Source of the DNA: an uncultured Gemmatimonadota bacterium
GTDB taxonomy: Bacteria > JAAXHH01
DNA length: 64,000 bases
Assembly (NCBI GenBank): GCA_951812955.1
Contig: OX638340.1
Coordinates: forward strand, 2,432,001 to 2,496,000
Direction: 5' to 3'
Shown here: positions 5,430 to 24,681 of the stretch, piece after piece
Layout: each line of letters starts with the position of its first letter
Position numbering within the stretch: position 1 is the stretch's first letter
Made by a program: the position numbers and the translations under genes
The notes under the pieces: generated by a model
Databases searched by the model: none
What the model saw: the letters and a program-made list of their open reading frames with translations, nothing else
What the model was told of the DNA's origin: nothing

Positions 5430-5436
5430 AAATGGA

Positions 5437-6174: not shown

Positions 6175-6298
6175 CGTTCATGAATGCCAGGACGGCAGCA
6201 CTATCTCTAATTACACGTCATGATACCTTGACGGTCGTGCTCGATTTCGACGTCAGACAACACGAAGATCAGTCGGACCAATATGAAGGAGCTCCAAC

Positions 6299-6916: not shown

Positions 6917-6988
6917 GTGTTCGCGGATATCACGAACGTCATCCGCTCGGAGATGCCGGGGGATAGAGAGGTGGGTATACCATAAGCA

Positions 6989-7219: not shown

Positions 7220-7224
7220 ATCGC

Positions 7225-7852
7225 TCACTCTCCCGCCGCCGGTTCCCATTTGCCAAAACGATCCAGCTTGTCCACCTCATGCACCAGGTTGTGGCACATC
7301 ACGCATGATCTGGTACCGTTGAGCATTTCTCGCAGATAGGGCCGGTGGTCCGGATGCTCCTCGTACGAGCGCGCGCCTGCGTGACATTCGAGGCAGGCCG
7401 TGTTTTCGTAGGGCTCGTACAGCGCGACGGGTTCGGACCACGTCCCCCAGACGTTGTGCCATACGTGCCGCACGCCCCGGATCTTGTCGTCCACGTCCCC
7501 GAACATCGTGTAGTCCGAATGGCAGACGTAGCAGGCATAGTCCGCGGGGATCCGCTTATTCTGGAAATGGGCGGCCGGCAGAAACCGGCCGTCGTCGATA
7601 TACAGGCTTTCCAGGAAGGGTTGGTTGACGTGGCAGGAGACGCAGAACTCGGTCGACTTGGCTTGCTCGTAGTGCTGCACGGTTCCCACCGAGCAGCGCC
7701 ACGCCGGGCAGCAGTAGAAACGTGAAGAACGCGAAGATCATGCCGCCGGCCGAGGCGGTAAGATCGGGCCGCCGCAGGACTACCGCGATCATGGCCAGCG
7801 TAATGGCCGCCAGGACGATCAGGGTGATGGTAAATCCGGTCATTCCGGCCAC
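7225..7852 (-). CDS. NapC/NirT/NrfH-family membrane tetraheme cytochrome c, split into two overlapping ORFs (probable frameshift near 7690-7705)
   Basis: ORF 7556..7852 encodes an N-terminal hydrophobic anchor (MTGFTITLIVLAAITLAMIAVVL…MIFAFFTFLLLPG). ORF 7225..7689 (GTG start, no signal peptide) has four CxxCH motifs (CVSCH, CYVCH, CLECH, CVMCH) in 150 aa. Family members are a single polypeptide of TM helix plus tetraheme domain. Confidence 0.6.
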
Positions 7853-8106
7853 TCAGTTCGACTCCTGTCCCCGGTCGCTATGGCTGCTTCGGTCGGCTCT
7901 ATTGTTCAGGCCGCCGACACTGCTCCGGCCACTTACTCCGCCGAACCGCGCCGGCCGGCTTCCTCACGAAGGTCCCGGGAGAGCGCCCTGATCTCGGCCA
8001 GGTCCTGCACCATCTCGCTCCAGCCGTACCACAGCGCATAGTCGGGATTGTTATGGAAGGTCCCCTGGAATGCCCGCATGCGATGTTCCAGGTGCATCCT
8101 GAAGAG

Positions 8107-9315: not shown

Positions 9316-9321
9316 GGAAGG

Positions 9322-9723
9322 TCACTGCCGGTTTTCAACGGCTTTCCGCCGCACCTCTTCACTCACCAGAACATCCGCGATGATTGCCACGATGTAGAAC
9401 TTGCCTTCCAACAGGTGCTCGTTGCTGAAAATGGGTTCCAGTTTTATCCATCTTCGAAGGTTCAGGTTCCCCCGGACCGTGTTGTATATAATGTCGTAAA
9501 ACTTCTGCGTGTCGTCAAACACCCAGGCTTCCGTGAAAATGATCCAGAACCCGATTTCTTCGGGAATGCCGTCCCAGTCGTTTGCCACCGCCCAGTTAAT
9601 CTCGATCGCCGGGTCGCTGTCGTACTTTATGGACTTCGATTCCGTGCCCATGACGATGCGGATTTGCAGATCCATATCGTTGATCTGGTTGAGCACGCCG
9701 TTCACGTCCTCGATAATTGCCAT
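9322..9723 (-). CDS. Hypothetical protein (acidic, AT-richer codon usage), first gene of the octaheme cytochrome operon
   Basis: 133-aa ORF ending 7 nt before the octaheme cytochrome start. Its GC is visibly lower than its neighbours. No recognisable motifs. Confidence 0.4.
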   Translation of the reverse strand: MAIIEDVNGVLNQINDMDLQIRIVMGTESKSIKYDSDPAIEINWAVANDWDGIPEEIGFWIIFTEAWVFDDTQKFYDIIYNTVRGNLNLRRWIKLEPIFSNEHLLEGKFYIVAIIADVLVSEEVRRKAVENRQ

Positions 9724-9880
9724 GTGCGCTCCTGGTGATGCGCTGGTTGTTGAATTGAATTCCAGTTGAAACCGAAGGTCGTTCGGACCCCGTAATCCTT
9801 TACTGCCGGCCTTGCAATCTAAAAAGTAAATCAGGTTGAGCAGAACCGGAAGGTAAACCGAAAGTTCGGATCCTCATCCA

Positions 9881-10495
9881 TCATGGCCCCTCCCAGGGCC
9901 GTATCCTCGGAAACCAGCGCGGCACGTTCGCCTTGTACAACCGGTAGGGTTCACCGAACCGGCGCTCGAGGCCCGGCTCCTCGTAGAACGGGAAGTAGAT
10001 CGCGCACACAACGAAGAACACGCACATCCAGGCCGCAAGGTGCCATGAGCCGAAGAGCAGGGCTTCGGCGCCGAGTATGAGCACCATACCCGAATTCATG
10101 GGGTTGCGCACGTGGCGATAAGGTCCGAGGACGACCAGCTTCTCGGGCGGAGCCCAGGGCGCTGGCGTGCCCTTCCCGACCCTGTCGAACAGCGCCATGG
10201 TCCAGGCGGCAAGGAACAGGCCGTCCACCGCCATCGCGACCCCGATCCAGAACCGGAACTGCGCGGGTTCCGCCGGTGACAGCGCGCCCGGCGAGTCTGA
10301 CGATATCCACAGTATCACGCCCGGAACGTAGACCGTAGCAGCTGCCGGAAGGAGAAGGACGGTCTTCGCAGTAGTCCATTTCACGCGGGACACCCCCTCG
10401 CACGGTCCATAGTGTCCATTTCGTACATTGGCGATTATTCCATTCGGCCGCTCAGCGACACCCATGACGAAGGGATAAAAACCGGTCCATGTCAA
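9881..10495 (-). CDS. Isoprenylcysteine carboxyl methyltransferase (ICMT)/phospholipid methyltransferase-family membrane protein
   Basis: The C-terminal motif …LVVLGPYRHVRNPMNSGMVL…EEPGLERRFGEPYRLYKANVPRWFP is the ICMT/PEMT signature. The true start is probably the internal GTG (VKWTTAKTVLLL…). Confidence 0.7.
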   Translation of the reverse strand: MTWTGFYPFVMGVAERPNGIIANVRNGHYGPCEGVSRVKWTTAKTVLLLPAAATVYVPGVILWISSDSPGALSPAEPAQFRFWIGVAMAVDGLFLAAWTMALFDRVGKGTPAPWAPPEKLVVLGPYRHVRNPMNSGMVLILGAEALLFGSWHLAAWMCVFFVVCAIYFPFYEEPGLERRFGEPYRLYKANVPRWFPRIRPWEGP

Positions 10496-10595
10496 GCGTT
10501 AGTAATTAAGTGACAAATCCCCCGGCCGGGACAAATGCGACAATTATATTGCACACGTTTGTTGTTCGTTATACTATACGAAATTCGAAACGATA

Positions 10596-10641
10596 TTTGA
10601 ACGAACCTATGAACTTGAACCCTGCGATTTGAACTGGAACC
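10596..10641. promoter_or_regulatory. Array of direct repeats TTGAAC(N0-2)GAACC x3 in the ICMT/M48 divergent promoter
   Basis: tttgaacgaacc / tgaacttgaacc / ttgaactggaacc read directly from the sequence, ~150 nt upstream of the M48 start at 10792. Confidence 0.3.
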
Positions 10642-10791
10642 TTGAGAATCCGCCGCGGATCTGTAGGGTCACTGCCAGGACCGGTAACCGCTTCGGTACG
10701 GATACGCGACAATCCCGCAGAATCGGACGGCGGATGCGGGACCGCGCCTTAACGGCCAAACCCGTTCCGACACACAGCCGGAGGATAAAGA

Positions 10792-11733
10792 ATGCATGGC
10801 GCCGAGAACGATATTCCATTTGAAGGCGAGGGGACTCATACAGGCGGGCCGGACCGGGCTGTTGACGATACGATCCGGCTGAACTGGCGCGAGAAGCTGG
10901 TTGAAGTCGGCCTGATGATGGTAATGTTCACGTGCGGTATGCTGATCGGAATGTTCGTCATCATAGCTTCTCTGCTTACCATGCGAAGTACATTCGAGCA
11001 GTTGGCCCCGGGATTCATGGAAGTAGGTTCGATTCCGCTCATCATTCTGGTCGTCGTGGCCGTGATCGTCGGGAATATCTGTTCGTTCAGCTGCGCTCCC
11101 TACCTCATACGTCTCTTCTTTCGGGGCTACGAGTTGAAGGACGAGCGGATCGACCGCGCTTTGGATCACCTGATTTCCGTGACCGGGATGGAAATCAGGG
11201 CCGAACGGATCTACGCCATAAAGGGCAGGACGGCCAACGCCGTCGTGGCCGGCCTCTTCCGGAAGGGTCAGTACATCTTCTTTACCAACAGGCTTCTGGA
11301 GAGAATGAGAGAAGGAGAGATCATGGCGATCCTGGCGCACGAACTGGCCCATGTGCGGCACCGGCACATGCCGAGGATGATGCTGGGCATCGTGCTATGG
11401 ACCCTCGGCATCCAGGTATTCTTCTGGCTGATTGGCTTCCAGGTTTACTTCGAATCGATCGAAGAATCCTGGAAAATGTGGGTGTATGGCGGAATAAATG
11501 CCTTGAACTTCTACCTGCTTGTTTTCCTCGTTCTGTTCCCGCAGTCGAGGCGTCACGAATACGAGGCGGATGAGGCCGCCGCCCGGTGGGTGGGCATAAG
11601 CCAGTACAAGCAGGCCCTTTACCGGTTGCATCAATTGAATGACCAACTGAAACCACCGAGGAAGATCCTGTCGAAGCTAAGTACCCATCCGACGCTTCAG
11701 CAGAGGCTGGAGCGGGTGGGGAATCTGGAATAA
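10792..11733 (+). CDS. M48-family (Ste24/HtpX-type) zinc metalloprotease, copy A
   Basis: Two N-terminal TM helices, then HELAHVRHRH (HExxH), two more TM helices, and a downstream EYEADE third zinc ligand. ~55% identical over its length to the 16245..17192 protein. Confidence 0.8.
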   Translation: MHGAENDIPFEGEGTHTGGPDRAVDDTIRLNWREKLVEVGLMMVMFTCGMLIGMFVIIASLLTMRSTFEQLAPGFMEVGSIPLIILVVVAVIVGNICSFSCAPYLIRLFFRGYELKDERIDRALDHLISVTGMEIRAERIYAIKGRTANAVVAGLFRKGQYIFFTNRLLERMREGEIMAILAHELAHVRHRHMPRMMLGIVLWTLGIQVFFWLIGFQVYFESIEESWKMWVYGGINALNFYLLVFLVLFPQSRRHEYEADEAAARWVGISQYKQALYRLHQLNDQLKPPRKILSKLSTHPTLQQRLERVGNLE

Positions 11734-11799: not shown

Positions 11800-13023
11800 T
11801 CACTCCATGTTCATCGCATCCACCGGGCTCAGCTGCGAAGCCTTCAAGGCGGGATATATTCCGGCACATAGACCTATTGCCAGTGAGATCGCCAGCGACA
11901 AGAGGATATTGGAAACCGACGTACCAGTCGTGAAAGTGAGATCCAACACCTGATTCAATACGAACGAGAAAACCGATCCAAGGCCCAGTCCCAGCAATAT
12001 CCCCAGTAACCCCCCTAAAGCACTGATACCTATGGCTTCCAGCGTGAATTGATTCACGATATCGACGTGTCTGGCTCCTACTGACTTCCTAATACCTATT
12101 TCCCGCCTTCGTTCCGTTACGGAGACCAGCATCATATTCATGATCCCGATTCCACCCACCATCAGTGAGATGCCCGCCACGGCGGCAATCGCCGACTTAA
12201 CGGCGTTAATCACACCTCCTATCTGGTCCATTGCGTTTTTTCCGCTGACTATGTCAAATCCGGGCGCATCACCATGGATTGTCTTCAAGGCTGCCTCAAT
12301 GTCATCCACCGCAATTTCCATGACACTCGAATCCACTACCTTGATGGTCAAAAGGTCGAAGCCTTCATGGCCAAGCATCCTTTTCTGGACCGTCGTTATC
12401 GGAACGAAGACCCGGTTGCCCCAACTTTCATTGAAAACAATCTTTGGCTTCATGACGCCGATCACGGCAAATCTCTGACCATTCAGTTTCACTTCCTTGC
12501 CGACCGGATTGGTATCGTCAAACAATCTAGCGGCCAGTTCATCGCCCAGTACACATACTTTTCGCCAGCGCTTGACGTCGCGGTCGGTAATGAATCGACC
12601 CGTGGAAACCGACCACTGGTACATCTCCGGAAATGAAGGCGTCGTGCCGTACAACATCCCTCCATGCGACGTTTTTGCGAATCTGAGATCTACATTCAAT
12701 GTCGCGGCGGGGACCAATTGGCGCACGGCGCTCGATCTTCTCCCGATTTCCAGCATATCCTGCCAGACAAGATGCTCGTAATCGGATACAGGCATCCAAC
12801 TTCCTTCCCTATTTTCGTATCTCGATGGACTCACCCACACCATGGAGCCGCCACGTACGGATTCGAATTCATCCATCACCATGTCGTGAAGCCCCTCTCC
12901 AATCACGATGATGCCTGTTACAGCGCCAATGCCGACCGCAATCCCCAGCAGCGTCAGGACCGAACGCAGCCTGTAGTGAACGAGATTGGTAAACACCGTG
13001 TGGACATGGTGCGCTAAAGACAT
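11800..13023 (-). CDS. MacB/FtsX-type ABC transporter permease (YknZ-like), no fused or adjacent ATPase
   Basis: N-terminal TM1 ([18 protein letters not shown]), a large periplasmic domain, and three C-terminal TM helices with the FtsX motif region (…[14 protein letters not shown]…). No Walker motifs. Confidence 0.8.
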
Positions 13024-13045
13024 AGACGACAGGGTCCGTAGAGGA

Positions 13046-14260
13046 CTATTGGTGTTTCGATTTCAGCGCGATATGAACCGCTCTTGCATCCGCTGCGATG
13101 TGTGCTCCAGGTTCGATACCGGACAGAATCTCCACATATTCAGTCGATTCAATTCCGATCTCGACCATGGTGGATTCCAGGTATTCTTCCGGACATTTCG
13201 ACATACCAGGGTCCATCGAAGTACAACGATAAACCACGTACGGCTTGCCGGGCACCGACCCAGTAGATGCTGTTTCCTTCTGTTCAGTGGCTATACCTAC
13301 GTAATCACCCATTTCCATGACCGAAGATGCAGGCGCAAGCAGCGAGCCTTCATTCTTCTCCAACACGATGTCGATATCGCAGGACATTCCCTGCTGCAAA
13401 TCCAGCGATGGATTCGATATCACGATTTCGGCATCGAACGTTACAAGCGCACTCCCGGGTTTCCGCACACCGATAGGCGCCAACCGCTCAACATGCCCGC
13501 TGTACAATGTGTCCGGGTAGGCATCGACACGAATCCGTACTTCCTGTCCAGGCCTGACCCTGCCTGCGTCAATTTCCCCAATGGCCGATTTGACGATCAT
13601 TCTGTCCGGATCGCCAATATGAAACATCTCCGTACCGCCGGTATACGAGGAGGTGCCCGATGCTACGACCTCGCCCGTTTCCACCATGCGGGCAACGACG
13701 ATGCCGTTCAAGGGAGACAGGATCCTCACGGCATCATGCGTTCTGTTGGAATCCACCTCAACATTAACCTTCAGTTCAAGTATTTTGAGTTCGAGTTCCG
13801 CCATGTTGAGATTATGATTGGCCTTGGTTTTTTCAATCCTTGCCTTGTCGAATTCCGCAGACGATATCAGGGATCTCTCATGTAATTCACGCTTTCTTTT
13901 AAAGGAGATCTCTTGTTCTGACAGATCTATTCGAGCGCCTTCAACTCTGGCGCGCTGCCGGGACAACTGAAGGGACTGAGACGGATCCGGCTCTATCACG
14001 GCAAGGACATCCCCCTTTGATACCGTATCCCCTACATCGGCGTGAATATGCCTGATTTCCCCGGATATGGTGGGTTTGACCATGACGGTCCTGACAAACT
14101 GGATCGTACCTGTCTCCACCAGGATATCGGAGATCGTTCCATGTTGAACCTGGAGTATTGGGAACGAGGCAACCCGGACCGTGGAACTGTAAACAAAGTA
14201 CAGTAGAACGGCTACGAGAATGCATGCCGATACGCAGACAATGACTATGCGTTTTTTCAT
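13046..14260 (-). CDS. HlyD/MacA-type periplasmic adaptor (membrane fusion protein, YknX-like)
   Basis: N-terminal anchor [22 protein letters not shown], a coiled-coil segment ([19 protein letters not shown]…[12 protein letters not shown]), and barrel/lipoyl motifs (…VKPTISGEI…[13 protein letters not shown]). Confidence 0.8.
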
Positions 14261-14281
14261 GTCAGCGGTGATTTCCAGGAA

Positions 14282-15013
14282 TTACACGTAAACGGTACCA
14301 AGGTTCTCCATGGTCCTGCGAATGACAATCCACATGCACCACACTAGTCCCAACGCGAACCATGTGAGTATAACCGATCCCTGGAAAGTCCGTGCAAGAC
14401 CCAACCCCAGCAGGTAAAGAAACCAAATACCGAAAAAGTCGACACCTGTAAGGAACAGGCCCGGGAGGGTTTCGAGGTCTGCATCGTCGAGCAACACACC
14501 AGGATGGATAGCCGGATCTAGCGACCCCCAAAGCAGAACCAGCGTGGTTTTGACGACTGTTTCGGGTACGAGGACAAGCAAGGCGTAGCCGGTAATCGGC
14601 AGAACCTTGTTGTACGGCAGGAGCTTACCGAAGATCAATTCTCCGCTGTGTTTCCCTACAACCGACCACGCGACAAGCATAAGGCAGACGCTGGCCGGCA
14701 TGATTAAAAGACCGGCGAGTTGCCTATGGTCGAATTTCGAAGCCTCGCGCAGGATAATAGATTGCTGAAACATACTGAGATTCGAATAGGACTGGAGTTC
14801 CATTTCGATCAACGCCCGTTCCGTATCCAGCGCAACCGGCAAAGTTACTATCCCGGCGATCAGTACGACCGACACGATAACGATCAGAATCAGGATCGAC
14901 TCAGAGGCGGACTGTTCAGTTTCAAGATCCGCAAATGCCCTCCCGGGACTGTAATAGACTCGTAGCCATCGCCTGGCATATCTTCCCATATCTATTGACG
15001 CGCTCAAGGACAT
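14282..15013 (-). CDS. Yip1-domain family membrane protein (YknW-like)
   Basis: The N-terminal …RVYYSPGRAFADLE… followed by 5 hydrophobic helices is the bacterial Yip1-domain pattern. It sits directly upstream of the HlyD and FtsX genes, as in B. subtilis yknWXYZ. Confidence 0.55.
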   Translation of the reverse strand: MSLSASIDMGRYARRWLRVYYSPGRAFADLETEQSASESILILIVIVSVVLIAGIVTLPVALDTERALIEMELQSYSNLSMFQQSIILREASKFDHRQLAGLLIMPASVCLMLVAWSVVGKHSGELIFGKLLPYNKVLPITGYALLVLVPETVVKTTLVLLWGSLDPAIHPGVLLDDADLETLPGLFLTGVDFFGIWFLYLLGLGLARTFQGSVILTWFALGLVWCMWIVIRRTMENLGTVYV

Positions 15014-16224
15014 AGATCTCCCATGATGACCAGATGGTAGTAGCTGTGTCCGCCACCGGACCAGAATGGACTATTCCAGGGCCAGAACCTCCACCAGATT
15101 GGTTTGGAACGGGTATATGCACCTTGGCGAAAACTCTCCAGGAAGGTACTGATGTGATGTACCGTGCTCGTGGAAAGATGCCTGCCGACTCTCTTGGGAT
15201 GGGATTCCACGCCGAGGTAAGAACGAATCATAAGGCTGTGTTCATCGATTGGAAGCGCATCGACATTCTCGACGTACCAATTGAACACGTAGTAGAAGTG
15301 GTTTATGAGGAAGTACTCAACGTTAGAAACATAGAAAACGGAAATGCTCGAGTCGTGGGCTTCAGCGTAAGAACCGATGGCCCTCAACGTCTTCTCGCCC
15401 GCGAAGTTTCCCACGACGGGAATGATCAGGTTCCTGTGATGCAGGCGCTTCACGAACCTGAATGTATCTTCGGTAAACAAGAAACTGGCGAATTCTCCCT
15501 CCACAGTCGTACCTGTCATCAGGTCTTTGAACGAAGGATAGGATAACCCGTTGCCCAGTCGTGTTTCAGCGTATGTAATCGAAAGCTGTTTTTCGTAAAA
15601 CGATCGGTATATGTAGCGCATCCTGTCGAGATCGTACCGATCTTTGATCCCATACATGCCTACTTCCCGACTGAGCCGCCTCCAATTCTGTTTAAAAAAC
15701 AGTGAGTCGGCCGTGGTCGACGATTCGATGTATTCCAGGACTTCCGTAACGGAAGCGGTTTTATCCGGTAATCCGTTCAAAGCCAATCCGACTTCCCGGT
15801 TATGTCTACTGAACAGCAGCATCAGGAAGGATGTCCGGTCCCGGGCCAGGGTAAAAAGGGCTTTGTAGAGGAGATGCTGAAGCAGGTTTTCACGTCGGAT
15901 GTCGACGACAAATGCGATTTCCGGTCTCGTAGCAGCGATGTAGGAGAAGTTCTGTTCCGTACCGACGCCGATATAGACGCCGCCGCGTTTTCCCAGTTCG
16001 ATTACGGTCGGGACAACGTGCAGGTAGGACGATTCATTGGAAACGAAGTTGTCGCCGGGAAAGTGACCGGGATCTTCGGAGAACGCAGTCATGATCCTGG
16101 CGAATTCGGACAGCGCAAGGGAGTCCGGCAACGCCCCGTAAGATGGGAAGCGCAGGTCAGTCAGCGCGCCGATGGTCAGTAGCAGTATGACAACTCGAAT
16201 CAACTTCATCGGTTTTACATCCAT
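15004..16224 (-). CDS. Secreted protein of unknown function
   Basis: Signal peptide MKLIRVVILLLTIGALT. 406 aa, no motifs I can assign. Translationally coupled (overlap) to the Yip1 gene. Confidence 0.5.
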   Translation of the reverse strand: MDVKPMKLIRVVILLLTIGALTDLRFPSYGALPDSLALSEFARIMTAFSEDPGHFPGDNFVSNESSYLHVVPTVIELGKRGGVYIGVGTEQNFSYIAATRPEIAFVVDIRRENLLQHLLYKALFTLARDRTSFLMLLFSRHNREVGLALNGLPDKTASVTEVLEYIESSTTADSLFFKQNWRRLSREVGMYGIKDRYDLDRMRYIYRSFYEKQLSITYAETRLGNGLSYPSFKDLMTGTTVEGEFASFLFTEDTFRFVKRLHHRNLIIPVVGNFAGEKTLRAIGSYAEAHDSSISVFYVSNVEYFLINHFYYVFNWYVENVDALPIDEHSLMIRSYLGVESHPKRVGRHLSTSTVHHISTFLESFRQGAYTRSKPIWWRFWPWNSPFWSGGGHSYYHLVIMGDLCP

Positions 16225-16244
16225 TCCATCTGCATTTGGTTCGT

Positions 16245-17192
16245 CTATTGCGCGTCCAACCTTGACACGCGGTCGAGACGGTTCTGCATCGTGGGGTGGG
16301 TCAGAAGTACTCTAACAAATCTCGGTGGTGGCTTTAAATTGTCATTGACTTGATGAAGACGGTAGAGCGCCCGTTTGTATTGCTCCGTGCCCACCCATTT
16401 TGCCGCCGTAGCATCTGCTTCGTATTCGTTACGCCTCGATAGCGGGTAAATGACCAGAAACATGAGAAGCCACACGTTCACGGCATTTAAAAGCCCGTAC
16501 GTCCACATTTTAAAAGACTCATCCATTGCATCGACATATGCACTGAAATCTAGCAGATACAGGAAAGCCTGCATCCCGCAGACCCACATAAATGTAGCCA
16601 ACTGCATCTTGGGAAGATGCCTGTGACGAACATGGGCCAATTCGTGGGCGAATATTGCCAAAATCTCCTCTTCGTTCGCTTTCGCCAGAAGTTTGTCCGT
16701 AAAGAAGATGTACCTGTTTTTGCGGAAAAGCCCAGTTACCATCGCGTTGGCAGTCCTGCTCTTGATGGTGTACAGGGTTTCTGCCGCAATGTTCATATCG
16801 ACGGACGATATCAGCTTCCCGACTGACCGATCCAGGCGATCGTCCCGTAACTCGTATCCACGGAAGATGAGACGTATCAGATATGGAGAACACAACCATG
16901 CACAGGCGTTCCCTACGGTTGCCGACAGGATGACCAGCAACACAATCGTTAAGGAACCTTGGTCCAATAGACCCGGAACTCCCTGAACAATCATGTCATC
17001 CGCGGTTAACAGAATGCTTAAGAACACGAATACCGCGATCAATATGCCCACCAGGGTCACACTCATGTTCAACCCGATTTCGACCAGTCTGTCGCGCCAG
17101 GTCAACCGGATTGGTTCATCTTTAATCGATGAAGCGCCGCCGGCTACTTCATTTATACGGTGTGTAGGTTCGACCATTATTTCCTTCTTCAA
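16245..17192 (-). CDS. M48-family (Ste24/HtpX-type) zinc metalloprotease, copy B
   Basis: HELAHVRHRH and NEYEAD motifs. Same topology as copy A and clearly paralogous to it (RLTWRDRLVEIGL…PYLIRLIFRGYELRDDRLDR…). Confidence 0.8.
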   Translation of the reverse strand: MKKEIMVEPTHRINEVAGGASSIKDEPIRLTWRDRLVEIGLNMSVTLVGILIAVFVFLSILLTADDMIVQGVPGLLDQGSLTIVLLVILSATVGNACAWLCSPYLIRLIFRGYELRDDRLDRSVGKLISSVDMNIAAETLYTIKSRTANAMVTGLFRKNRYIFFTDKLLAKANEEEILAIFAHELAHVRHRHLPKMQLATFMWVCGMQAFLYLLDFSAYVDAMDESFKMWTYGLLNAVNVWLLMFLVIYPLSRRNEYEADATAAKWVGTEQYKRALYRLHQVNDNLKPPPRFVRVLLTHPTMQNRLDRVSRLDAQ

Positions 17193-17199
17193 ATCAGCG

Positions 17200-17850
17200 T
17201 TATGACATAACGGCTTGTACCAGGCCGTTTAGCGCGACGTATGCCAGGATCACGCCGACTGCTTTGAACCTGGGCATCAAGCAGACCCTGTGCACCGCTT
17301 CGATGGCAAAAGCGACCACCAGGGTCAAAGCAATATACCGACCGTATCGAATCCACTTAAGCAACCCGATATCCTGCATCTTCGTGATCTCGCCGGGCAA
17401 TTGATCGATCGTGGCCAGGTTCGACAGTCCGACATAGACCATCTGGTCTGAAAACGCAAGCATGAGAACGACCGCCATGATCGAATACACTGTAACCGGG
17501 GTGTATGCGACACCCAGCCATCCAAACAGCGCGCGATGACGACGTCTACTGTTCAATAGCGCAACAACGATCATTACAAACAGCCAACCGAACACGAAAA
17601 TCACGATTTCGCCCAATGTGACGCCCAATATCATGGTTATGAACATAACTGAGAATAACTGTGCATATGTTTCGGTAAGATGATCCGGTATTTGTCCTGC
17701 AACTGACCTGAAAGTCAGAAAAAGTACGATCCCGTTCATAAGCAAGTATATGACAAACATGCCGATGCCCGTCGAGAGCGGTTCGGTTACACTGATTGAT
17801 ACCAGCCTGTCGGATGCCCTGCGTGGAATTTCCATTTTCTGTCCGTTCAA
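17200..17850 (-). CDS. Polytopic membrane protein (possibly Yip1-like), hypothetical
   Basis: 216 aa with 5-6 hydrophobic helices. It follows the SpoIIM-like gene with a 4-nt overlap. Confidence 0.45.
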   Translation of the reverse strand: MNGQKMEIPRRASDRLVSISVTEPLSTGIGMFVIYLLMNGIVLFLTFRSVAGQIPDHLTETYAQLFSVMFITMILGVTLGEIVIFVFGWLFVMIVVALLNSRRRHRALFGWLGVAYTPVTVYSIMAVVLMLAFSDQMVYVGLSNLATIDQLPGEITKMQDIGLLKWIRYGRYIALTLVVAFAIEAVHRVCLMPRFKAVGVILAYVALNGLVQAVMS

Positions 17851-18518
17851 TTGATTTTGTTCGCTATTTGTCCAGTGACAAAGGTTTCTATAATCGAAGC
17901 CACCGTGATCAGAAGGAATCCGGTGACGAGTCTGCGTACGTTCAAGGCCAACCTATCCGAATCTATGAGCCATGTATCGAACTTGAGTTTTTGGCAAAAG
18001 AGGACCAGACCTTCGCATCCCACAGCGCCGAAAAACACAAACCCCGCCAACTCAATCACGCCATGGGGTAGAATCAAAGCGGCTATGTGGTATATCGAAG
18101 CACCGGAATCAACCGCAGAAAGCGTAGACCATGCCACGATAGTTCCTGTCCAGCCCAATATCACAACACTGACCAATCCAAAGGACAGAAGGCCCAATAG
18201 TATTTTCATGGAAACGAGGAAATTGTTGCCAATAATGAAACGCCATTCATCCCCACCGTCCAAAAAGGGACGTGAATCCAGCATGAGGGTGGAGCTACCC
18301 GGATCTGTTGGTTTATTCTCAATCATATCCAGGGGCATTGCCGCTCCAACACCCAAGCCGACGATGACAGAAGCAAAGGAAATTAAAATGGGTAGTTTGC
18401 TTGGTTTGCGCGTTGACATAGATCCCACACTAGGTATCATCCATAAATTCCGAGGAAAGGATGGAGGCCATTTTCGGCCTCCATCCATCGTACTTACCAG
18501 CTTGTTAAATTCCAGCAC
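17847..18518 (-). CDS. SpoIIM/DUF95-family integral membrane protein
   Basis: 223 aa with multiple TM helices. Its overall pattern resembles the stage II sporulation protein M / DUF95 family. Its start overlaps the 3' end of the peptide gene by 14 nt. Confidence 0.45.
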   Translation of the reverse strand: MLEFNKLVSTMDGGRKWPPSFPRNLWMIPSVGSMSTRKPSKLPILISFASVIVGLGVGAAMPLDMIENKPTDPGSSTLMLDSRPFLDGGDEWRFIIGNNFLVSMKILLGLLSFGLVSVVILGWTGTIVAWSTLSAVDSGASIYHIAALILPHGVIELAGFVFFGAVGCEGLVLFCQKLKFDTWLIDSDRLALNVRRLVTGFLLITVASIIETFVTGQIANKIN

Positions 18519-18789
18519 CTATAAACACGGCGCCAACACCGGTTCCAATGCCAACGCTGGCCACGAGACCATAGCCGGCTGCTGTCAGCCAACCAATTGT
18601 TCCACCACCAGCCAATCCACCCAGTGCAACACCGCCAACCAGGGACGCATTGGAACCCCACAAGCAGTAAGCGAGGTTCGGCGACGCTGCGATGCCCGGT
18701 GTTTCAGCCAGCGGCGAACTGGCCGTTGAGTTGACGCTCGCGCCTGCGATCAGGGCGAACATGAACACTGAGAGAATGAGTTTTTTCAT
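18505..18789 (-). CDS. 94-aa secreted Gly/Ala-rich hydrophobic peptide precursor (bacteriocin-like / glycine-zipper-like)
   Basis: The ATG at 18789..18787 has a GAGGGG SD 9 nt upstream. Sequence: MKKLILSVFMFALIAGASVNS|TASSPLAETPGIAASPNLAYCLWGSNASLVGGVALGGLAGGGTIGWLTAAGYGLVASVGIGTGVGAVFIGAGI. It has a Sec-type signal, then a ~73-aa uncharged segment with repeated GxxxG motifs. Confidence 0.55.
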   Translation of the reverse strand: MKKLILSVFMFALIAGASVNSTASSPLAETPGIAASPNLAYCLWGSNASLVGGVALGGLAGGGTIGWLTAAGYGLVASVGIGTGVGAVFIGAGI

Positions 18790-19114
18790 AATGATTTGTT
18801 CCCCTCGATTTTGGTATATATCGAACCAATGTGGTTTATCCTTCGAAAGACTCTGTAATGCCGTTAACCTCCTTTCCTCTCTCAAATTAGATTCCATCCG
18901 CCGTTCTCATTCGATGCGACGTCATTCTCTGCCCAGGTACCAGGAAACTCGGTTGCAGGTCTCGGAATGCGCAGTTCCGAGAGAAAGCGTCGATCTCTTA
19001 ACGGGGACTCGACCTAATGTTAAAACTGAATCCAGTAACTGTGACCGCAGCGATCTATCACAATTAGTCTCCGTGAATCCCCGGTTCTCGTAGACAATCT
19101 CTATTTCCTGCAAT

Positions 19115-19143
19115 AAAAAAGCCCGGCGATCGTACCGCCGGGC
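19115..19143 (-). terminator. Rho-independent terminator after the large secreted-protein gene
   Basis: The minus-strand RNA folds as GCCCGGCG-GUACGAU-CGCCGGGC followed by UUUUUU. It lies between the 19275 gene end and the peptide-operon promoter region. Confidence 0.6.
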
Positions 19144-19274: not shown

Positions 19275-21884
19275 CTACTCCCCGTCCCCATCCCCCACCG
19301 CATCCAGCAGCGCTTCCCGCGTCATGCCATCGGGAGGCGTGTTTAGGCCCGATTCCTCGCCCGGGTCGGCGACGAGCCAGATGCCGCGCTCGAGGGCGTA
19401 GCCATCTCGTTCGGAGGCCTTTTGGAGGAGTTCCTGCAGGTCTTCGCCATCCATCAGGCCCAGCAGCCCGACGGGGATCACCCGGGCGGAGATTCCCCTT
19501 TCGCGCAGGAAGCCCGCGTACCAGTCGGGAGGACGTTCATAGGAGAACACGAGAAAGGGGCGTTCCGGCGTGCCGGCGCCCCGCCAGAATCCCAGGCGAT
19601 ACCAGTCCGGCCGCAGGGAGCGGACGAAGGCGCCGTGGCGCAGCCGGGGATTGATTTCGTCCATGGACTGCCGGTACAGCGTGCCGAGGCGCTCCGCGTT
19701 GGCTTCCTGGAGCTGGATATAGGTCTCGAGGTATCCCGACTTGAGCAGCCACTCGAACCGGTCTTCCCGGTCCAGTCCCATGAGCGACCTGAATTCGTCG
19801 CCGTGGTACAGACCGTTCCGGACGAGATGCCGGATGAAGTACCGGAAATGCAGGTCGTCGAAGACGTCGGTCGCGGCATAGGCGTGCCGCGGACGCGTGA
19901 TATGGGGATCCCAGTCGTGCACGATGGCCTGCGGGGCCCCCTGGAGGCGGCTGTGCCGGGCGATGGCGCGGGCCGGCTCAAAGAGGTGGCGGTTCAGGTA
20001 TGCCATGTCGAGCCGGGAAGGCAGGTCGACGTCCTCCCCGCGGGCGTTCAGGGCGGCTGCGTAGTCGCCGGTGATCTCGCGCTCGCGAGGGGCGCTGACG
20101 CCGGCGTACCAGGCCGTCGGTGTGCCGCCCACGCGGCTGAGGATGGGCATGGCCCACGATTCGAAACGCACGTCGCCCGTCACCGCCGCGCCCCCGGTGT
20201 AACTGGCAGCCGGCGCCACGGTCCAAAGGAAGTCCATCCCGAGGCCGGGCAACGTTCCGGCGAGTTCGGACACGTGTTCATGCCGGCGGGCGATGAAATC
20301 CCAGACGCCTCGAAGCGGTACGGCATCCGTCGTGCCGGTAGAGAGGCCGGCGTCTGCCGAGTCGCCGGGACTGGGGCGGGCTTCGGCGTCCACGCTGGCG
20401 TCTGAGCCGGAACCCGGACCAGCGCCCAGCTCTGCACTTGAACCTGTGCCGGCTCCGGAACCCGTGCCGTCGCCTGTGCCCGCGCCGTCGCCTGTGCCCG
20501 CGCCGGGTCCGTCATCCGGACCGGACGCCGCGCTGCTGAGCACCCGGACCCGTTCGGGCGCCGCCGTCCTTATGGATACGTTGTTGAGGGAGAAATCCGG
20601 TTTCCGGTTGCCGGGCATCTGGGCCGTGGCATAGTCGTGTTCGGGAGACCAGTCTCCGGGGGAATCGACCAGCGCGCGGACGTAGCTCGCGAGTCCGTCC
20701 ATAAAATCATCCAGTCCTTCGAGATCGGCTTCCCGGGGGCGGATGCCCAGGGGCGGCAAGGGCCGGTCGAGCCCGGATAGCACCTGGCGGTCAACGGCAA
20801 GGACGAATCCCTCGTTCAGCCGGCCGGTCCGTCCCGCGGCCGCTACCGCCATGCGGCCGAAGGTCTCCTCGTCGCCTCGCATGGTTTCCAGGTCTTCGGC
20901 CGACCCGATCTCTTCCCGGATCTCCCGGTCGGCGAAAGCGGCGGCGATGATCTCCACCGGAACGCCCACCAGCGCGTATTCGGATCCCCAGCGGTTTCCG
21001 GACATGCGCACGGTCAGCGTGTCCTTCGCATCTGAAACGCCTTCCACCCTGCCCTTGAATCTCGCCGCGGTCCAGTCCACCGGCACGAGCCGATCCCGGT
21101 TCCGGTACTGCAGGCTGGTCCGCAGCTCCTGGTCGCCGCGCAGCAGCAGTTCGACGTCTTCTCCCGCAATCGCGTCCGCGGGGGAGATACGCAAGGTACG
21201 CCGGACTACGCGGTATTCGGGTTCGGGTTCGGGTGCGGGTTCCGGTTCGATCTCCTCTCCAGGGTCCGGCGCTTGAGGTTCCACGAGCAGCGGCTCGGCA
21301 CCGTCGCCCACGAGCAGCCGGGTGCCGGCGCGGGCGGCCACGCTGCCGTCCATGCCCCGCCCGACCGGGTGGCCGTCGGCAATTTCGAAATAGACCACGG
21401 GGTTCAGGACTGGACTGGTTTCGTGGTCGGCGTTCAGCGCGTGCAGGTTGATGTTCAGACGGGCCAAGATCTCGTTGAACTGATACCGGTCGTGGACGCC
21501 GGGATTGACCTTCCTCCGCTCGCTGTAGGGCCCGTCGGAGGGCATCGCCAGCACGAGCACTTTACCCCGCGACACGAAGTTGATGACCAGGTCCACTTCC
21601 TGGATGCTCATGCCCGGATCGCCGCCGCCCAGAAGCACGATGGCGTCGTAGTCCCGGGCGTCCCGTTCGACCATGGCCGGATAATACGGCCGGTAGTCGA
21701 CGTCGAACCCCGCTTCCGAGAACGCCTGTATCATCCCGGTGTGCTCTTCCGGATAGGCCATGGCGTATTCGACGACGAGCAGGCGGGGATCGCCGTTCGG
21801 CCCGGCGGACGGCTCCTGCCTCGCGCTTGCGGAGTAATTGGGCGCCAGGAATACAATCAGGCAGACAATCAGTTTGATTCGCAT
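19275..21884 (-). CDS. Large secreted protein of unknown function with Gly/Thr/Asp-rich repeat linker
   Basis: Signal peptide MRIKLIVCLIVFLAPNYSASA. 869 aa. The internal low-complexity repeat is GAGTGDGAGTGDGTGSGAGTGS. High GC. Confidence 0.6.
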   Translation of the reverse strand: MRIKLIVCLIVFLAPNYSASARQEPSAGPNGDPRLLVVEYAMAYPEEHTGMIQAFSEAGFDVDYRPYYPAMVERDARDYDAIVLLGGGDPGMSIQEVDLVINFVSRGKVLVLAMPSDGPYSERRKVNPGVHDRYQFNEILARLNINLHALNADHETSPVLNPVVYFEIADGHPVGRGMDGSVAARAGTRLLVGDGAEPLLVEPQAPDPGEEIEPEPAPEPEPEYRVVRRTLRISPADAIAGEDVELLLRGDQELRTSLQYRNRDRLVPVDWTAARFKGRVEGVSDAKDTLTVRMSGNRWGSEYALVGVPVEIIAAAFADREIREEIGSAEDLETMRGDEETFGRMAVAAAGRTGRLNEGFVLAVDRQVLSGLDRPLPPLGIRPREADLEGLDDFMDGLASYVRALVDSPGDWSPEHDYATAQMPGNRKPDFSLNNVSIRTAAPERVRVLSSAASGPDDGPGAGTGDGAGTGDGTGSGAGTGSSAELGAGPGSGSDASVDAEARPSPGDSADAGLSTGTTDAVPLRGVWDFIARRHEHVSELAGTLPGLGMDFLWTVAPAASYTGGAAVTGDVRFESWAMPILSRVGGTPTAWYAGVSAPREREITGDYAAALNARGEDVDLPSRLDMAYLNRHLFEPARAIARHSRLQGAPQAIVHDWDPHITRPRHAYAATDVFDDLHFRYFIRHLVRNGLYHGDEFRSLMGLDREDRFEWLLKSGYLETYIQLQEANAERLGTLYRQSMDEINPRLRHGAFVRSLRPDWYRLGFWRGAGTPERPFLVFSYERPPDWYAGFLRERGISARVIPVGLLGLMDGEDLQELLQKASERDGYALERGIWLVADPGEESGLNTPPDGMTREALLDAVGDGDGE

Positions 21885-22296: not shown

Positions 22297-24681
22297 TTGA
22301 GTGCTCGCGACGATCCGGTACCGGAGATACAGGCGTTGCGCGCACGCAACGACGCGCTCAACGCGGCGATCCTGCGTATCAACGCAAGCCTGGACCTCGA
22401 AAACGTCCTCAGGGAGGTCGTGGAGAGTGCCAGGGCGCTCACCGGTGCCCGCTTCGGCGCCATCACCACCATCGACGAGACCGGCGTTCTCCAGGACTTC
22501 GTCTCCTCCGGTCTTACCGAAGAGGATCATCGGCGCATGGTGGACTGGCCGGAAGGGCCGCAACTCTTCGAACACTTCCGCGACCTGCCGGGACCGCTGC
22601 GGCTCGCGGACATGTCCGAATACGTGCGCAAAATCGGTTTTTCGGCTGACCGACTGCCGAACGTCCGTTCCTTCCTGGGTACGCCGATGCGTCTTGGTGG
22701 CGAGCACGTAGGCAGCTTCTACCTGGTCGAAACGGCAGGCGGCGAGGAGTTCACGAATGAGGACGAGGAGGCCCTTGTACTGTTCGCTTCACAGGCGGCC
22801 GTCGCGATTGCCAATGCGCGTGCGCACCGTATCGAGCAGCGTACCAGGGCCGACCTCGAAGCGCTGGTCGAGACCTCTCCGGTGGGCGTCGTGGTGTTCG
22901 ATGCCGTGGCGGGCAGGCGGGTGTCATTCAACCGGGAGGCGAAGCGGATCGTGGAGCACCTGCGCATACCGGGCCGATCCTATGAAGCCATACTCGAGGT
23001 GGCGACCTGCCGCTTCGCCGACGGACGCGAAGTCGCGCTGGACCAGCTCTCGCTGTCCCGTGTGCTCAGTGGTTCCGTGACGGTGAAGGCCGAGGAGATC
23101 GTGCTTTCCACACCCGATGGGCGCAGTGTGACGATGCTCGTAAACGCCACCACGATCCGCGGCGAGGACGGCGCGGTTGCGTCGGTGGTGGTCACCATGC
23201 AGGACCTGGCGCCGCTGCAGGAACTGGACCGGACGCGGGCCGAGTTTCTCAGCATGGTGAGCCACGAACTGCGCGCGCCGCTGACTTCCATCAAGGGGTC
23301 GGCGACGACGGTGTTGAACGCCTCACGGGAACTGGACCCGGCCGAAGTCCGCCAGTTCTTCCGTATCATCGATGAACAGGCCAATCTCATGGACAGCCTG
23401 ATCGGCGATCTGCTCGATGCGGGACGCATCGATACGGGCAGTTTGTCTGTCTCCCCCGAACCCTCCGACGTCGGCGCCCTGGTGGACCAGGCCCGCAACA
23501 CTTTCCTGTCCGGAGGCGTCAGACACGACGTACTCATCGACCTGCCGCCCGATCTGCCCCCGGTTCTCGCCGACAGGAAACGCATCGGGCAGGTGCTGAA
23601 CAACCTGCTGTCCAACGCCGCACGCCACTCGGCGGCGACAACGCCCATCCGGATCTCGGCCGAACGGGACGGCGTATACGTCGCGCTCACCGTTTCCGAC
23701 GAGGGCCGGGGCATAGCGCCGAAACTTCTCGGACGGTTGTTTCGCAAGTACGGGCGCACCGAAGAAGACGCAGGCGTGACCGGAGGCCTGGGGCTGGTCA
23801 TCTGCAAGGGGCTGGTCGAGGCACATGGCGGGCGCATACGGGCCGAAAGCCCGGGCATGGGGAAGGGCACGCGCTTCGTCTTCACGATACCTGTTGCGGC
23901 AAAGGGCGGCGAAGACGCAGCGGACGGCGATGCCCGCCAGTCCTCGGGCATACCTTCCGAAGGCCGCCAGCCGACGCCTGTCCTCGTTGTGGACGACGAT
24001 CCACAGACCCTGCGTTACGTGCACGACATTCTCGCCGATTCGGGCTACTCCGCACTGGTCACGGCCGAACACAGGGATATTTCGAAAATCATCGAAGCGG
24101 AGAAGCCCAAACTGGTTCTGCTCGACCTCATGCTGCCCGAAACCGACGGGATCGAACTCATGCAGACTATTCCCGAGCTTGCCATCCTGCCGGTAATCTT
24201 CATCTCGGGCTATGGACGCGACGAGACGATTGCAAGGGCGCTGGAAGCCGGCGCCGAGGACTATATCGTCAAGCCCTTCTCACCGACCGAGCTCACCGCA
24301 CGGATCGGAGCCATCCTCCGCCGACGGGCCAATCCGGAACGCTTCGTGCTCGGCGAGCTGGCCATCGACTACGACCGCCGCGAGGTCGAAATCGCGGGTC
24401 GGCCGGTGCCGCTTACGGCGACAGAGTACGAGGTGTTGCGTGTGCTTTCGCTCTGCGTGGGGCGAATCGCTACCTACGACGCCTTGCTGCGTGAGATCTG
24501 GGGCAGGCGCGGCTTCGGCGACGCGAGACTCGTACGGGCCATCGTCAAGCGTCTTCGGAGGAAGCTCGGCGACGACGCGAACAATCCGTCCTACATCGCC
24601 AACGTGCGCGGCCTTGGCTACCGCCTGATCCGGCCGGCCGGAACGGGGGAATCGGGCGGACCGGGTGGACAGGGCGGATAG
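22297..24681 (+). CDS. Hybrid sensor histidine kinase / response regulator with C-terminal OmpR-PhoB winged-helix DNA-binding domain (GAF-PAS-HisKA-HATPase-REC-trans_reg_C)
   Basis: TTG start with a GGGGAGGG SD. GAF-like N-domain, H-box SHELRAPLTSIKG, G-boxes (…GGLGLVICKGLVEAHGGRI…), REC domain (VLVVDDDPQTLRYV…LVLLDLMLPETDG…), and a C-terminal …LTATEYEVLRVL…YIANVRGLGYRL winged helix. Confidence 0.85.
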   Translation: MSARDDPVPEIQALRARNDALNAAILRINASLDLENVLREVVESARALTGARFGAITTIDETGVLQDFVSSGLTEEDHRRMVDWPEGPQLFEHFRDLPGPLRLADMSEYVRKIGFSADRLPNVRSFLGTPMRLGGEHVGSFYLVETAGGEEFTNEDEEALVLFASQAAVAIANARAHRIEQRTRADLEALVETSPVGVVVFDAVAGRRVSFNREAKRIVEHLRIPGRSYEAILEVATCRFADGREVALDQLSLSRVLSGSVTVKAEEIVLSTPDGRSVTMLVNATTIRGEDGAVASVVVTMQDLAPLQELDRTRAEFLSMVSHELRAPLTSIKGSATTVLNASRELDPAEVRQFFRIIDEQANLMDSLIGDLLDAGRIDTGSLSVSPEPSDVGALVDQARNTFLSGGVRHDVLIDLPPDLPPVLADRKRIGQVLNNLLSNAARHSAATTPIRISAERDGVYVALTVSDEGRGIAPKLLGRLFRKYGRTEEDAGVTGGLGLVICKGLVEAHGGRIRAESPGMGKGTRFVFTIPVAAKGGEDAADGDARQSSGIPSEGRQPTPVLVVDDDPQTLRYVHDILADSGYSALVTAEHRDISKIIEAEKPKLVLLDLMLPETDGIELMQTIPELAILPVIFISGYGRDETIARALEAGAEDYIVKPFSPTELTARIGAILRRRANPERFVLGELAIDYDRREVEIAGRPVPLTATEYEVLRVLSLCVGRIATYDALLREIWGRRGFGDARLVRAIVKRLRRKLGDDANNPSYIANVRGLGYRLIRPAGTGESGGPGGQGG

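Follow-up and report, generated by a model that had tools for sequence, protein, structure and literature searches.

Every characterised circular-bacteriocin gene cluster contains a gene of the SpoIIM/DUF95 family (Pfam PF01944; PMC8659200 among other sources). An ATP-binding cassette (ABC) protein is required by the mining criteria of Xin et al. (2020), and a large membrane protein is likewise regarded as a key component (PMC13463998). Yip1 proteins accompany three-gene accessory ABC sets in these clusters, up to three precursor copies may be present and an M48 peptidase is found occasionally (PMC8659200). The altitudin S subgroup is defined by the combination of M48 peptidase, SpoIIM and YIP1; its leaders contain an N-terminal hydrophobic segment, and the cyclization of altitudin S has been proven by mass spectrometry (bioRxiv 10.1101/2025.10.31.685828). 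Leader cleavage and cyclization by DUF95 proteins are still merely proposed in papers up to 2026 (PMC13463998, PMC8659200). Predicted circular bacteriocins come nearly all from Bacillota, with a few from Actinobacteria and Thermotogae, and our literature search retrieved no paper tying Gemmatimonadota to such peptides. PF01944 itself is broad and widespread, and most of its members have no link to a peptide. Here we describe a SpoIIM/DUF95 gene in a 64,000-nucleotide stretch of DNA (the window) from an uncultured Gemmatimonadota bacterium (assembly GCA_951812955.1, contig OX638340.1, positions 2,432,001 to 2,496,000), the host lineage being one that is known from metagenome-assembled genomes (MAGs) only. 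The original prediction had placed at this site a 223-aa DUF95 protein translationally coupled to a small peptide gene, as in circular-bacteriocin maturation loci. Our analysis upholds the family assignment and the membrane-protein neighbourhood, corrects the start of the gene and leaves no place for coupling in this genome. With a probability of roughly 0.55, the eight-gene operon to which the gene belongs would be a circular-bacteriocin-like system for peptide maturation, export or immunity in a diderm bacterium. The gene itself is as follows:

17847..18428, minus strand: SpoIIM/DUF95-family inner-membrane protein of 193 aa, GTG start (PF01944 match, conserved start, invariant residues, AlphaFold model)

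The open reading frame (ORF) expected at 17847..18518 is present on the minus strand (223 aa, GTG start). Its assignment to DUF95/SpoIIM, originally made from architecture, was confirmed by a Pfam search, in which PF01944 matched residues 51–215 of the long ORF with 52.4 bits (E 7.6e-14), the gathering score that defines family membership being 26.9 bits, and in which positions 5–162 of the 163-position profile were covered. A search of 5.8 billion proteins returned 34 clusters of homologues, all 34 with PF01944, and the gene is therefore real and not a chance ORF; the named clusters are annotated as 'stage II sporulation protein M' and derive from Gemmatimonadota/Gemmatimonadetes MAGs. The subfamily is isolated, an exhaustive search of 1.84 billion representatives having yielded 3 of them at E ≤1e-30, 10 at ≤1e-10 and 166 at ≤1e-3. 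Exactly four columns are invariant among 78 diverse family members that include As-48C, namely N69, H122, E126 and E181 (numbered on the 193-aa protein). The window protein keeps all four of these polar residues, H122 and E126 forming the PHG..E motif, N69 being the N of the second helix and E181 the C-terminal E. The multiple transmembrane helices that had been foreseen are equally apparent, since the protein is polytopic by hydropathy, fits an all-helical membrane protein of ~150–220 aa and is modelled by AlphaFold with five helices at a predicted local distance difference test score (pLDDT) of 90.7. A sequence search of the PDB with the SpoIIM profile gave nothing meaningful. The ORF thus encodes a genuine SpoIIM/DUF95-family five-helix inner-membrane protein and, taken by itself, is a further member of a known family, whose orthologues already bear this name in public annotation. 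SpoIIM of Bacillus subtilis, part of the engulfment DMP complex, belongs to the same Pfam family and has the same polytopic architecture; its role, however, needs SpoIID, SpoIIP and a sporulating host, whereas the window gene sits in a peptide, protease and pump operon. Gemmatimonadota are not known to form endospores.

For comparison, we used 16 close loci (L001–L016), of which a scan of genome contigs recovered only 7 and nothing more distant, and distant SpoIIM relatives of ~30% identity, namely L017, L018/L019, L020 (Longimicrobiales) and L021 (a Blastocatellia MAG). The reference clusters were those of AS-48 on pPD1 (L009), Shouchella lonarensis (L023) and Priestia sp. WB3 (L024). The close loci stem from metagenomes, Tara and others, and from MAGs whose labels read Gemmatimonadetes or, twice, Latescibacterota; sample and bin names suggest that the MAGs are of sponge or coral origin. 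The two MAGs labelled Candidatus Latescibacterota are those of L014 and L016, the other named ones being Gemmatimonadetes, so that the public records would seem to be inconsistent in their binning or taxonomy.

Neither the length of 223 aa nor the reported start 14 nt inside the peptide gene could be maintained. Although gene callers have made many different choices of start in the homologues, protein conservation begins only near K41 of the long ORF. A GTG is found at the position of window 18428 in all nine other loci with a 94-aa-type peptide whose DNA was compared, with an AAGGA-like Shine-Dalgarno sequence ~11 nt upstream, and in L014 an in-frame TAA stands immediately before it. In view of the late onset of conservation, the shared GTG and this stop codon, the gene runs from 17847 to 18428 and encodes 193 aa. 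Since the stop codon of the peptide gene (TAA) occupies 18507–18505, the SpoIIM start lies 76 nt downstream of it, and the 14-nt overlap is an artefact that arose because the longest ORF was taken. The gap holds the following element:

18459..18486, minus strand: stem-loop with a perfect 11-bp stem, GGATGGAGGCC / GGCCTCCATCC, and a 6-nt loop, gaaaat (sequence and centroid fold)

The extension of the long ORF would have to traverse this hairpin (18486–18459). Over 10 loci, 97.5% of the pair cells are paired, as against 30–58% in controls made with slid alignments, and two pairs show compensatory changes from G-C to A-U. In L005–L008, a hairpin of unrelated sequence occupies the equivalent place. 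The element is not followed by a U-tract and was not flagged by the terminator scan, nor was a promoter-like site found between it and the SpoIIM start. It may act as an attenuator or as an mRNA-stabilising 3′ hairpin, raising the amount of peptide mRNA over that of the machinery. Translational coupling to the peptide gene, as originally suggested, is contradicted here by the onset of conservation at about K41, the shared GTG and the hairpin in the gap. L017–L019, by contrast, have no intergenic hairpin; there, the GTG of SpoIIM lies within the peptide gene, with an 11-nt overlap at the stop codon. Other members of the family may thus make use of coupling, though this genome does not.

The expected neighbours, a small peptide gene directly upstream and membrane-protein genes after SpoIIM, are in place. 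The operon comprises eight genes on the minus strand, in the order peptide, SpoIIM, Yip1-like protein, M48 protease, DUF7790 protein, YknW-like Yip1 protein, membrane-fusion protein and MacB-type permease; those other than SpoIIM are:

18505..18789, minus strand: 94-aa peptide precursor (ATG with a GAGGGGA Shine-Dalgarno sequence)
17200..17835, minus strand: polytopic protein of ~211 aa, Yip1-like below threshold (Pfam Yip1, E 3.3e-4)
16245..17192, minus strand: membrane M48 (HtpX-like) zinc metalloprotease (Pfam Peptidase_M48, E 1.8e-28; intact HELAH...NEYEAD)
15004..16224, minus strand: exported or membrane-anchored DUF7790 / LIC_10091-like protein (Pfam DUF7790, E 2.7e-36)
14282..15013, minus strand: Yip1-domain membrane protein, YknW-like (Pfam Yip1, 30.4 bits against a cut-off of 28.6)
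13046..14260, minus strand: periplasmic adaptor (membrane-fusion protein) of the MacA/YknX type (Pfam HlyD_D23 and HlyD_3)
11800..13023, minus strand: MacB-type permease with MacB_PCD (Pfam, E 1.3e-40) and FtsX (E 1.6e-18)

The 94-aa precursor begins with a Sec-like leader (MKKLILSVFMFALIAGASVNSTA at its start). The first ~25 residues (MKKLILSVFMFALIAGASVNSTANA) are near-invariant and comprise a basic n-region, an h-region and an AXA-type site (ANA/ASS). They are followed by a Pro-rich spacer, which closes with the conserved motif A(T/S)P(N/H)LxYCL (PNLxYCL), and by ~50 C-terminal residues that are Gly/Ala-rich, uncharged and highly variable. The 69 residues after the leader include 18 Gly and 12 Ala, a single E and no K or R. 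The peptide family consists of 55 clusters of 84–134 aa, mostly 90–96 aa; only three source names are given, all of them Gemmatimonadota/Gemmatimonadetes. The ratio of the proportions of nonsynonymous and synonymous differences (pN/pS) rises from 0.18 for the leader to 0.65 for the core; the leader does accumulate synonymous changes, so that what is conserved there is the protein sequence. Between the window and L001, pN amounts to 0.26 in the core and 0.05 in SpoIIM, that is, the core changes about five-fold faster. Each locus carries one or two tandem copies of the peptide gene. Pfam and NCBIfam searches with the peptide produced no match even at E values up to 10.

Two other identities were considered for the peptide. 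A lipoprotein anchored through the conserved Cys42 was rejected, because a Tyr precedes the Cys, the Cys lies ~20 residues past the h-region and the L017-type peptides are Cys-free. A thiolactone pheromone of the AgrD/AgrB type was set aside on the same grounds, the context of Cys42 and the Cys-free L017-type peptides, and also because the neighbouring hybrid kinase, in which Pfam finds soluble domains only, begins with GAF and was read as cytoplasmic.

Weak Yip1 matches were found in 7 of 10 orthologues of the 211-aa protein, in whose family G88, W89, R106, E184, H187 and R188 are invariant, and its gene stands directly 3′ of SpoIIM even in relatives of ~30% identity. The NCBIfam matches of the M48 protease are to HtpX families, every one below the equivalog cut-off. 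The DUF7790 protein shows a weak NCBIfam LIC_10091_fam match and a match to PDB entry 6ulo, an 'uncharacterized protein' (E 6.8e-11), and the YknW-like protein matches NCBIfam YknW_fam below its cut-off (E 4.1e-5). The adaptor scores 117 bits with TIGR01730 (cut-off 94.9), and a Beta-barrel_YknX domain is present in its orthologues. Pfam found no ABC_tran domain among the operon genes, and none of them is equivalent to the large As-48B-like membrane protein of ~550–650 aa; neither do the gaps between the operon genes, which are ≤76 nt, hold an ORF for a small cationic hydrophobic immunity protein. At third codon positions, the G+C content (GC3) of the operon is 0.52–0.63 as compared with 0.76–0.88 in the flanking genes, and the overall GC content is much lower too (~11800–18800). 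This could reflect either an old acquisition that has not been ameliorated or a compositional difference that is maintained.

The arrangement is remarkably constant among relatives. In all 16 close loci a leader-bearing peptide gene lies directly upstream of SpoIIM, and wherever the contig is long enough the whole operon order is kept, together with flanking genes for aconitase, GAPDH, a hybrid histidine kinase/response regulator, a secreted protein of ~850 aa, a PEMT-like protein and multihaem cytochromes. Synteny extends to every relative with at least 50% protein identity. With order and flanks thus retained, the locus must be vertically inherited in the clade, despite its foreign codon usage. 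Further away, every relative examined, to ~30% identity, has SpoIIM between one or more small signal-bearing peptide genes and a gene for a Yip1-like membrane protein of ~210 aa. L017, L018/L019 and L020 carry one or two signal-bearing, Gly/Ala-rich peptides of 89–92 aa upstream of SpoIIM and, after it, a membrane protein of 208–217 aa homologous to the Yip1-like protein of the window. An M48 gene follows in L017 and L020, while the contigs of L018/L019 end before the next gene can be identified; L020 has two extra fused ABC exporters. In L021, a signal-bearing 85-aa peptide that is not Gly/Ala-rich is followed by SpoIIM and a 220-aa protein, and no M48 was found in this locus. By hhalign, the Yip1-like family next to SpoIIM showed no relationship to the YknW-like Yip1 protein or to the Yip1 proteins of L023 and L024, nor were the window-type and L017-type peptides detectably homologous, and accordingly we claim no homology among the Yip1-like proteins or between the peptide types.

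Some of these loci hold additional small ORFs. In L017, adjacent ORFs at 6246–6443 and 6487–6702 (65 and 71 aa), ~1 kb upstream of the glycine-rich peptide genes, have a common leader MK.KLKIE(E/D)L.V(E/D)SFV and Cys-rich C-termini; they look like precursors of ribosomally synthesised and post-translationally modified peptides. Between the ~850-aa gene and the peptide genes, L006 (9308–9586) and L008 (3010–3288) encode an extra 92-aa protein, helical, charged and cytoplasmic-looking (MxG(I/F)P(D/E)GPMQFE(E/D)DL..), which has no counterpart in the window.

As in circular-bacteriocin clusters, a precursor-like peptide gene adjoins the SpoIIM/DUF95 gene, whereas the ABC protein, the large membrane protein, a precursor of a known family (for instance PF09221, with its saposin-like bundle of 4–5 helices) and the immunity protein are missing. 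The altitudin S-type gene set is present, in that M48 and YIP1, the second Yip1 protein being above cut-off, occur with SpoIIM and a precursor; a highly cationic PF09221 core of ~76 aa and orthology of the cluster proteins are not. In the altitudin S-type cluster of Priestia sp. WB3 (L024), the precursor gene likewise lies near genes for Yip1, a membrane M48 protease and SpoIIM/DUF95, and the leaders resemble that of the window precursor in being long, with a basic n-region and a hydrophobic helix, and in being separated from the core by a polar spacer. The order in L024 is precursor, Yip1, M48, SpoIIM, a 563-aa membrane protein and an ABC ATPase; the last two are absent from the window, which for its part adds DUF7790, the YknW-like Yip1 protein, the membrane-fusion protein and the MacB permease. 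The altitudin S core has 76 aa, a charge of +13 and belongs to PF09221, whereas the window core is Gly/Ala-rich, uncharged and without a family. Identity amounts to only 25% over 116 aa for SpoIIM and 23% over 163 aa for M48, and the Yip1-like protein has no significant match, so that the likeness is one of a set of families and of precursor layout, not of orthology. The hosts differ as well, those of the altitudin S type being Bacillales and that of the window a diderm.

The AS-48 cluster (as-48ABCC1DD1EFGH of E. faecalis pPD1) offers a second comparison. As-48C is a PF01944 protein (42.1 bits) with a PH..IE motif and shares the N/H/E/E residues with the window protein; the AS-48 leader is hydrophobic, as is that of the window. 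The counterparts of As-48F and As-48H in the window are the membrane-fusion protein and the MacB/FtsX permease, with 30% identity between As-48H and the permease (E 3e-26). However, the comparison with As-48-type DUF95 proteins called for by the original prediction turned out divided: the four invariant residues are common to both, but hhalign gave a probability of only 19% for As-48C against the window SpoIIM family, over 65 columns in the PH..IE region. The AS-48 cluster moreover encodes As-48B (556 aa), a pair of ATPases and a small immunity protein, none of which is seen in the window, and its peptide, unlike that of the window, belongs to PF09221. The parts of the cerecyclin cluster are also comparable to the window set.

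The nearest Bacillota relative of the window SpoIIM is that of Shouchella lonarensis (L023; 29% over 137 aa, pairwise E 1e-15). There, too, SpoIIM is preceded by a gene for a small Ala/Gly-rich hydrophobic peptide, and genes for a MacB permease, 32% identical to that of the window (E 3e-47), and for a YknX adaptor lie downstream. The locus differs in having a 648-aa membrane protein and an ABC ATPase, in lacking M48 and in its nearly leaderless peptide. Its content, at 4869–11601 of FMYM01000002.1, is a 53-aa Ala/Gly-rich peptide ending in Trp, membrane proteins of 648 and 236 aa, SpoIIM, an ABC ATPase, YknX and MacB, flanked by AimR-like regulators; this apparently is an undescribed putative cluster of the circular-bacteriocin type.

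The pump genes can be compared with YknWXYZ, which guards against the SDP peptide toxin (PMC4887032), and with MacAB-TolC, which exports the Sec-delivered enterotoxin STII from the periplasm (PMC5985334). Three of the four parts of a YknWXYZ/As-48EFGH-type pump are encoded in the window, namely a Yip1/YknW-like protein, a YknX/MacA-type adaptor and a permease with MacB_PCD and FtsX; what the operon lacks is the fourth, the ATPase (YknY or the MacB ATPase domain), and the YknW_fam match, as noted above, is below cut-off.

Judged by its genes, then, the system is a circular-bacteriocin-like gene set in a diderm phylum; its precursor combines a Sec-type leader with a glycine-rich core, and neither ATPase nor large membrane protein is included. 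The likeness to circular bacteriocins first proposed for the locus accordingly holds for gene content (peptides, SpoIIM, Yip1, membrane-fusion protein, MacB/FtsX, M48), but does not extend to coupling or to the precursor family, and the similarity of the proteins is at family level only. Our preferred reading, that of a circular-bacteriocin-like maturation, export or immunity system, may be pictured as follows. A signal-anchor-like leader would direct the 94-aa precursor to Sec for insertion or export. An inner-membrane complex of SpoIIM, the Yip1-like protein and M48 would remove leader and spacer around the PNLxYCL boundary, shield the producer membrane from the glycine-zipper-like core, or both; cleavage is predicted close to residue 25 (ANA/ASS), behind PNLxYC at about residue 42, or at the two sites. 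Expulsion of the mature peptide, from the outer leaflet or the periplasm, would then fall to the MacB-type permease together with the membrane-fusion protein and the YknW-like Yip1 protein, a step modelled on MacAB-TolC with STII and on YknWXYZ and As-48EFGH with peptide toxins, the pump ATPase being encoded elsewhere. Owing to the intergenic hairpin, more mRNA would be available for the peptide than for the machinery. The product would most likely be a bacteriocin-like or surface-active peptide.

Several observations weigh against this reading. The Yip1 assignment of the 211-aa protein next to SpoIIM is sub-threshold. The only ABC ATPase that a motif scan found in the 64-kb window is CcmA (37913–38758), 20 kb away and adjoining CcmB and CcmC; none is present in the orthologous loci, and the pump is therefore incomplete as encoded. 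A locus that is syntenic, apparently core in its clade and flanked by aconitase and GAPDH is unusual for a bacteriocin. The peptide fits no bacteriocin family in Pfam or NCBIfam, and its AlphaFold model, with 34 family members, is uninformative (pLDDT 52). Finally, the mature peptides of L017, L018 and L020 are not variable but highly conserved, which points to a housekeeping role there, and the failure of hhalign to connect them with the window type leaves the two kinds of peptide apart.

The operon is followed by a convergent gene:

10792..11733, plus strand: second M48 protease, paralogue of that at 16245–17192, convergent with the operon end (translation, NCBIfam HtpX matches)

A frameshifted ABC ATPase downstream of the permease was considered and rejected, as this stretch encodes the M48 paralogue. 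The second M48 gene was found in L001–L003, L005, L006 and L008. Both paralogues are syntenic, and their N-terminal regions are very similar.

A first alternative is that the peptide is a true head-to-tail cyclized bacteriocin, in which case SpoIIM, possibly with M48, would remove the leader and ligate the N- to the C-terminus of a core of ~50–70 aa, the other genes serving export and immunity. The universal presence of PF01944 in characterised clusters, the N/H/E/E residues common to the window SpoIIM and As-48C, and the combination of SpoIIM, YIP1 and M48 that marks the experimentally cyclized altitudin S subgroup, where leaders also start with a hydrophobic stretch, as does that of AS-48, would all be in line with it, as would the several precursor copies and the Yip1/membrane-fusion protein/FtsX accessory transporter typical of such clusters. 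Cleavage of the signal-peptidase type would leave 69 aa, within the known range of 58–76, and circular bacteriocins of subgroup ii are neutral or anionic and hydrophobic. Yet the ATP-binding protein and the large membrane protein, described as key or universal, are absent, the peptide matches neither PF09221 nor any other bacteriocin family, and no compact helical fold is confidently predicted for it. The low hhalign probability with As-48C, the 25% and 23% identities with the altitudin S-type SpoIIM and M48, the near-restriction of predictions to Bacillota, with no Gemmatimonadota link in the literature searched, and a Sec-type leader with an AXA site, which would put the substrate outside the cytoplasm, count against it in the same manner. 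Because the ATPase, the large membrane protein and a recognisable precursor family are all missing, we consider cyclization unlikely. It is tempting to speculate further on a diderm version of the circular-bacteriocin machinery, in which a minimal set of Sec-leader peptide, SpoIIM, Yip1-like protein and M48 would process a hypervariable peptide of the glycine-zipper kind and perhaps also cyclize it on the periplasmic side, without ATPase or large membrane protein, before a MacB-type ejection; this proposal, too, is a doubtful one.

Alternatively, the operon may have nothing to do with antagonism. The peptides would then be small glycine-zipper proteins of the envelope, structural or stress-related, in the inner or outer membrane, which SpoIIM, the Yip1-like protein and the HtpX-like M48 proteases would insert, assemble and quality-control, and which the MacB-type module would extract or traffic much as LolCDE does with lipoproteins. 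This would be consistent with a syntenic locus that is part of the core chromosome, with the resemblance of the M48 proteases to HtpX, a quality-control protease for membrane proteins, and with the strongly conserved mature peptides of L017, L018 and L020, which have sub-threshold Pfam Gly-zipper_Omp matches (E ~4e-3). MacB-family members also perform non-efflux work such as lipoprotein extraction (PMC5985334), and SpoIIM of B. subtilis is a scaffold rather than an enzyme. On the other hand, the near-invariant leader, the fast core (pN/pS 0.65; five-fold the pN of SpoIIM) and the varying copy number in the window's clade are what peptides secreted for competition or signalling, more than structural proteins, typically show, the codon usage of the operon is foreign to its flanks and the gene set parallels that of bacteriocin clusters. 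An envelope role of this kind therefore seems improbable to us. That the SpoIIM homologue serves an unrelated membrane remodelling, a role suggested in many bacteria and archaea that do not sporulate, and has no more than a transcript in common with the peptide gene would agree with the wide distribution of PF01944, mostly without a peptide link, and with a hairpin that could be a terminator between two transcription units, but is highly improbable given that the adjacency of peptide, SpoIIM and Yip1-like genes lasts to ~30% identity across Gemmatimonadota and one Blastocatellia MAG, that SpoIIM overlaps the peptide stop in L017–L019, and that the hairpin lacks both a U-tract and, between itself and the SpoIIM start, a promoter-like site.

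The region upstream of the peptide gene may contribute to the control of the operon. It holds two elements:

19121..19143, minus strand: strong intrinsic terminator at the end of the upstream 869-aa gene, with a GC-rich stem of 10 bp and then TTTTTTATTG (terminator scan)
18887..19017, minus strand: core of a conserved non-coding leader that as a whole spans ~18790–19120 (~330 nt; column identity)

The terminator (19143–19121) is conserved in related loci and forms the 5′ boundary of the peptide operon. Over 7 loci, the mean column identity of the leader is 80%, above that of the coding regions, even with the inclusion of L002, whose SpoIIM is 50% identical. Blocks such as CTCTCGGAACTGCGCATTCCGAGAC (18983–18959) recur in each of the 16 close loci but in none of the distant ones, and the indel lengths are not divisible by three. 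A multi-stem structure of ~131 nt with two covarying pairs is predicted by RNAalifold; Rfam has no known RNA family in the window. The conserved stretch upstream of the peptide ATG may therefore be a structured cis-regulatory leader RNA, for which it is a candidate.

Among the flanking genes, that of the 869-aa protein with a signal peptide (19275–21884, minus strand) has no Pfam family and contains a Gly/Thr/Asp-rich low-complexity stretch. Divergent from it, at 22297–24681 on the plus strand, lies a gene for a hybrid GAF-PAS histidine kinase with receiver and OmpR-type regulator (Pfam matches to GAF, PAS, HisKA, HATPase, receiver and OmpR-type domains). The peptide operon is invariably flanked by both genes, which makes the kinase a candidate for its regulation. 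On the other side, a PEMT-like methyltransferase (9881–10495) just past the operon and multihaem c-type cytochrome genes (NapC/NirT-like and seven-haem type; 7225–9315, minus strand) are syntenic.

The role of DUF95/SpoIIM proteins in the maturation of circular bacteriocins has been an open question for decades. In the diderm phylum Gemmatimonadota, the locus described here ties DUF95, Yip1 and M48, in reduced form, to small peptides that bear a signal; the pairing of DUF95 with a Yip1-like protein, without M48, is also found in one Acidobacteriota MAG. A reduced and conserved module with natural core variants offers a useful experimental handle on the role of DUF95. Its precursor family has a clearly frozen leader and a variable core, and the system is compact and testable, as the operon lends itself to expression with genes deleted one at a time. 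Circular-bacteriocin-like gene sets would thereby reach beyond Bacillota. Should the idea of a diderm cyclizing module prove true, this would be the first such system in Gemmatimonadota and a stripped-down model of DUF95 function. Should the peptide instead be an envelope component, the locus would still give the widespread PF01944 family concrete partners in the form of a peptide substrate, a Yip1-like protein and an M48 protease.

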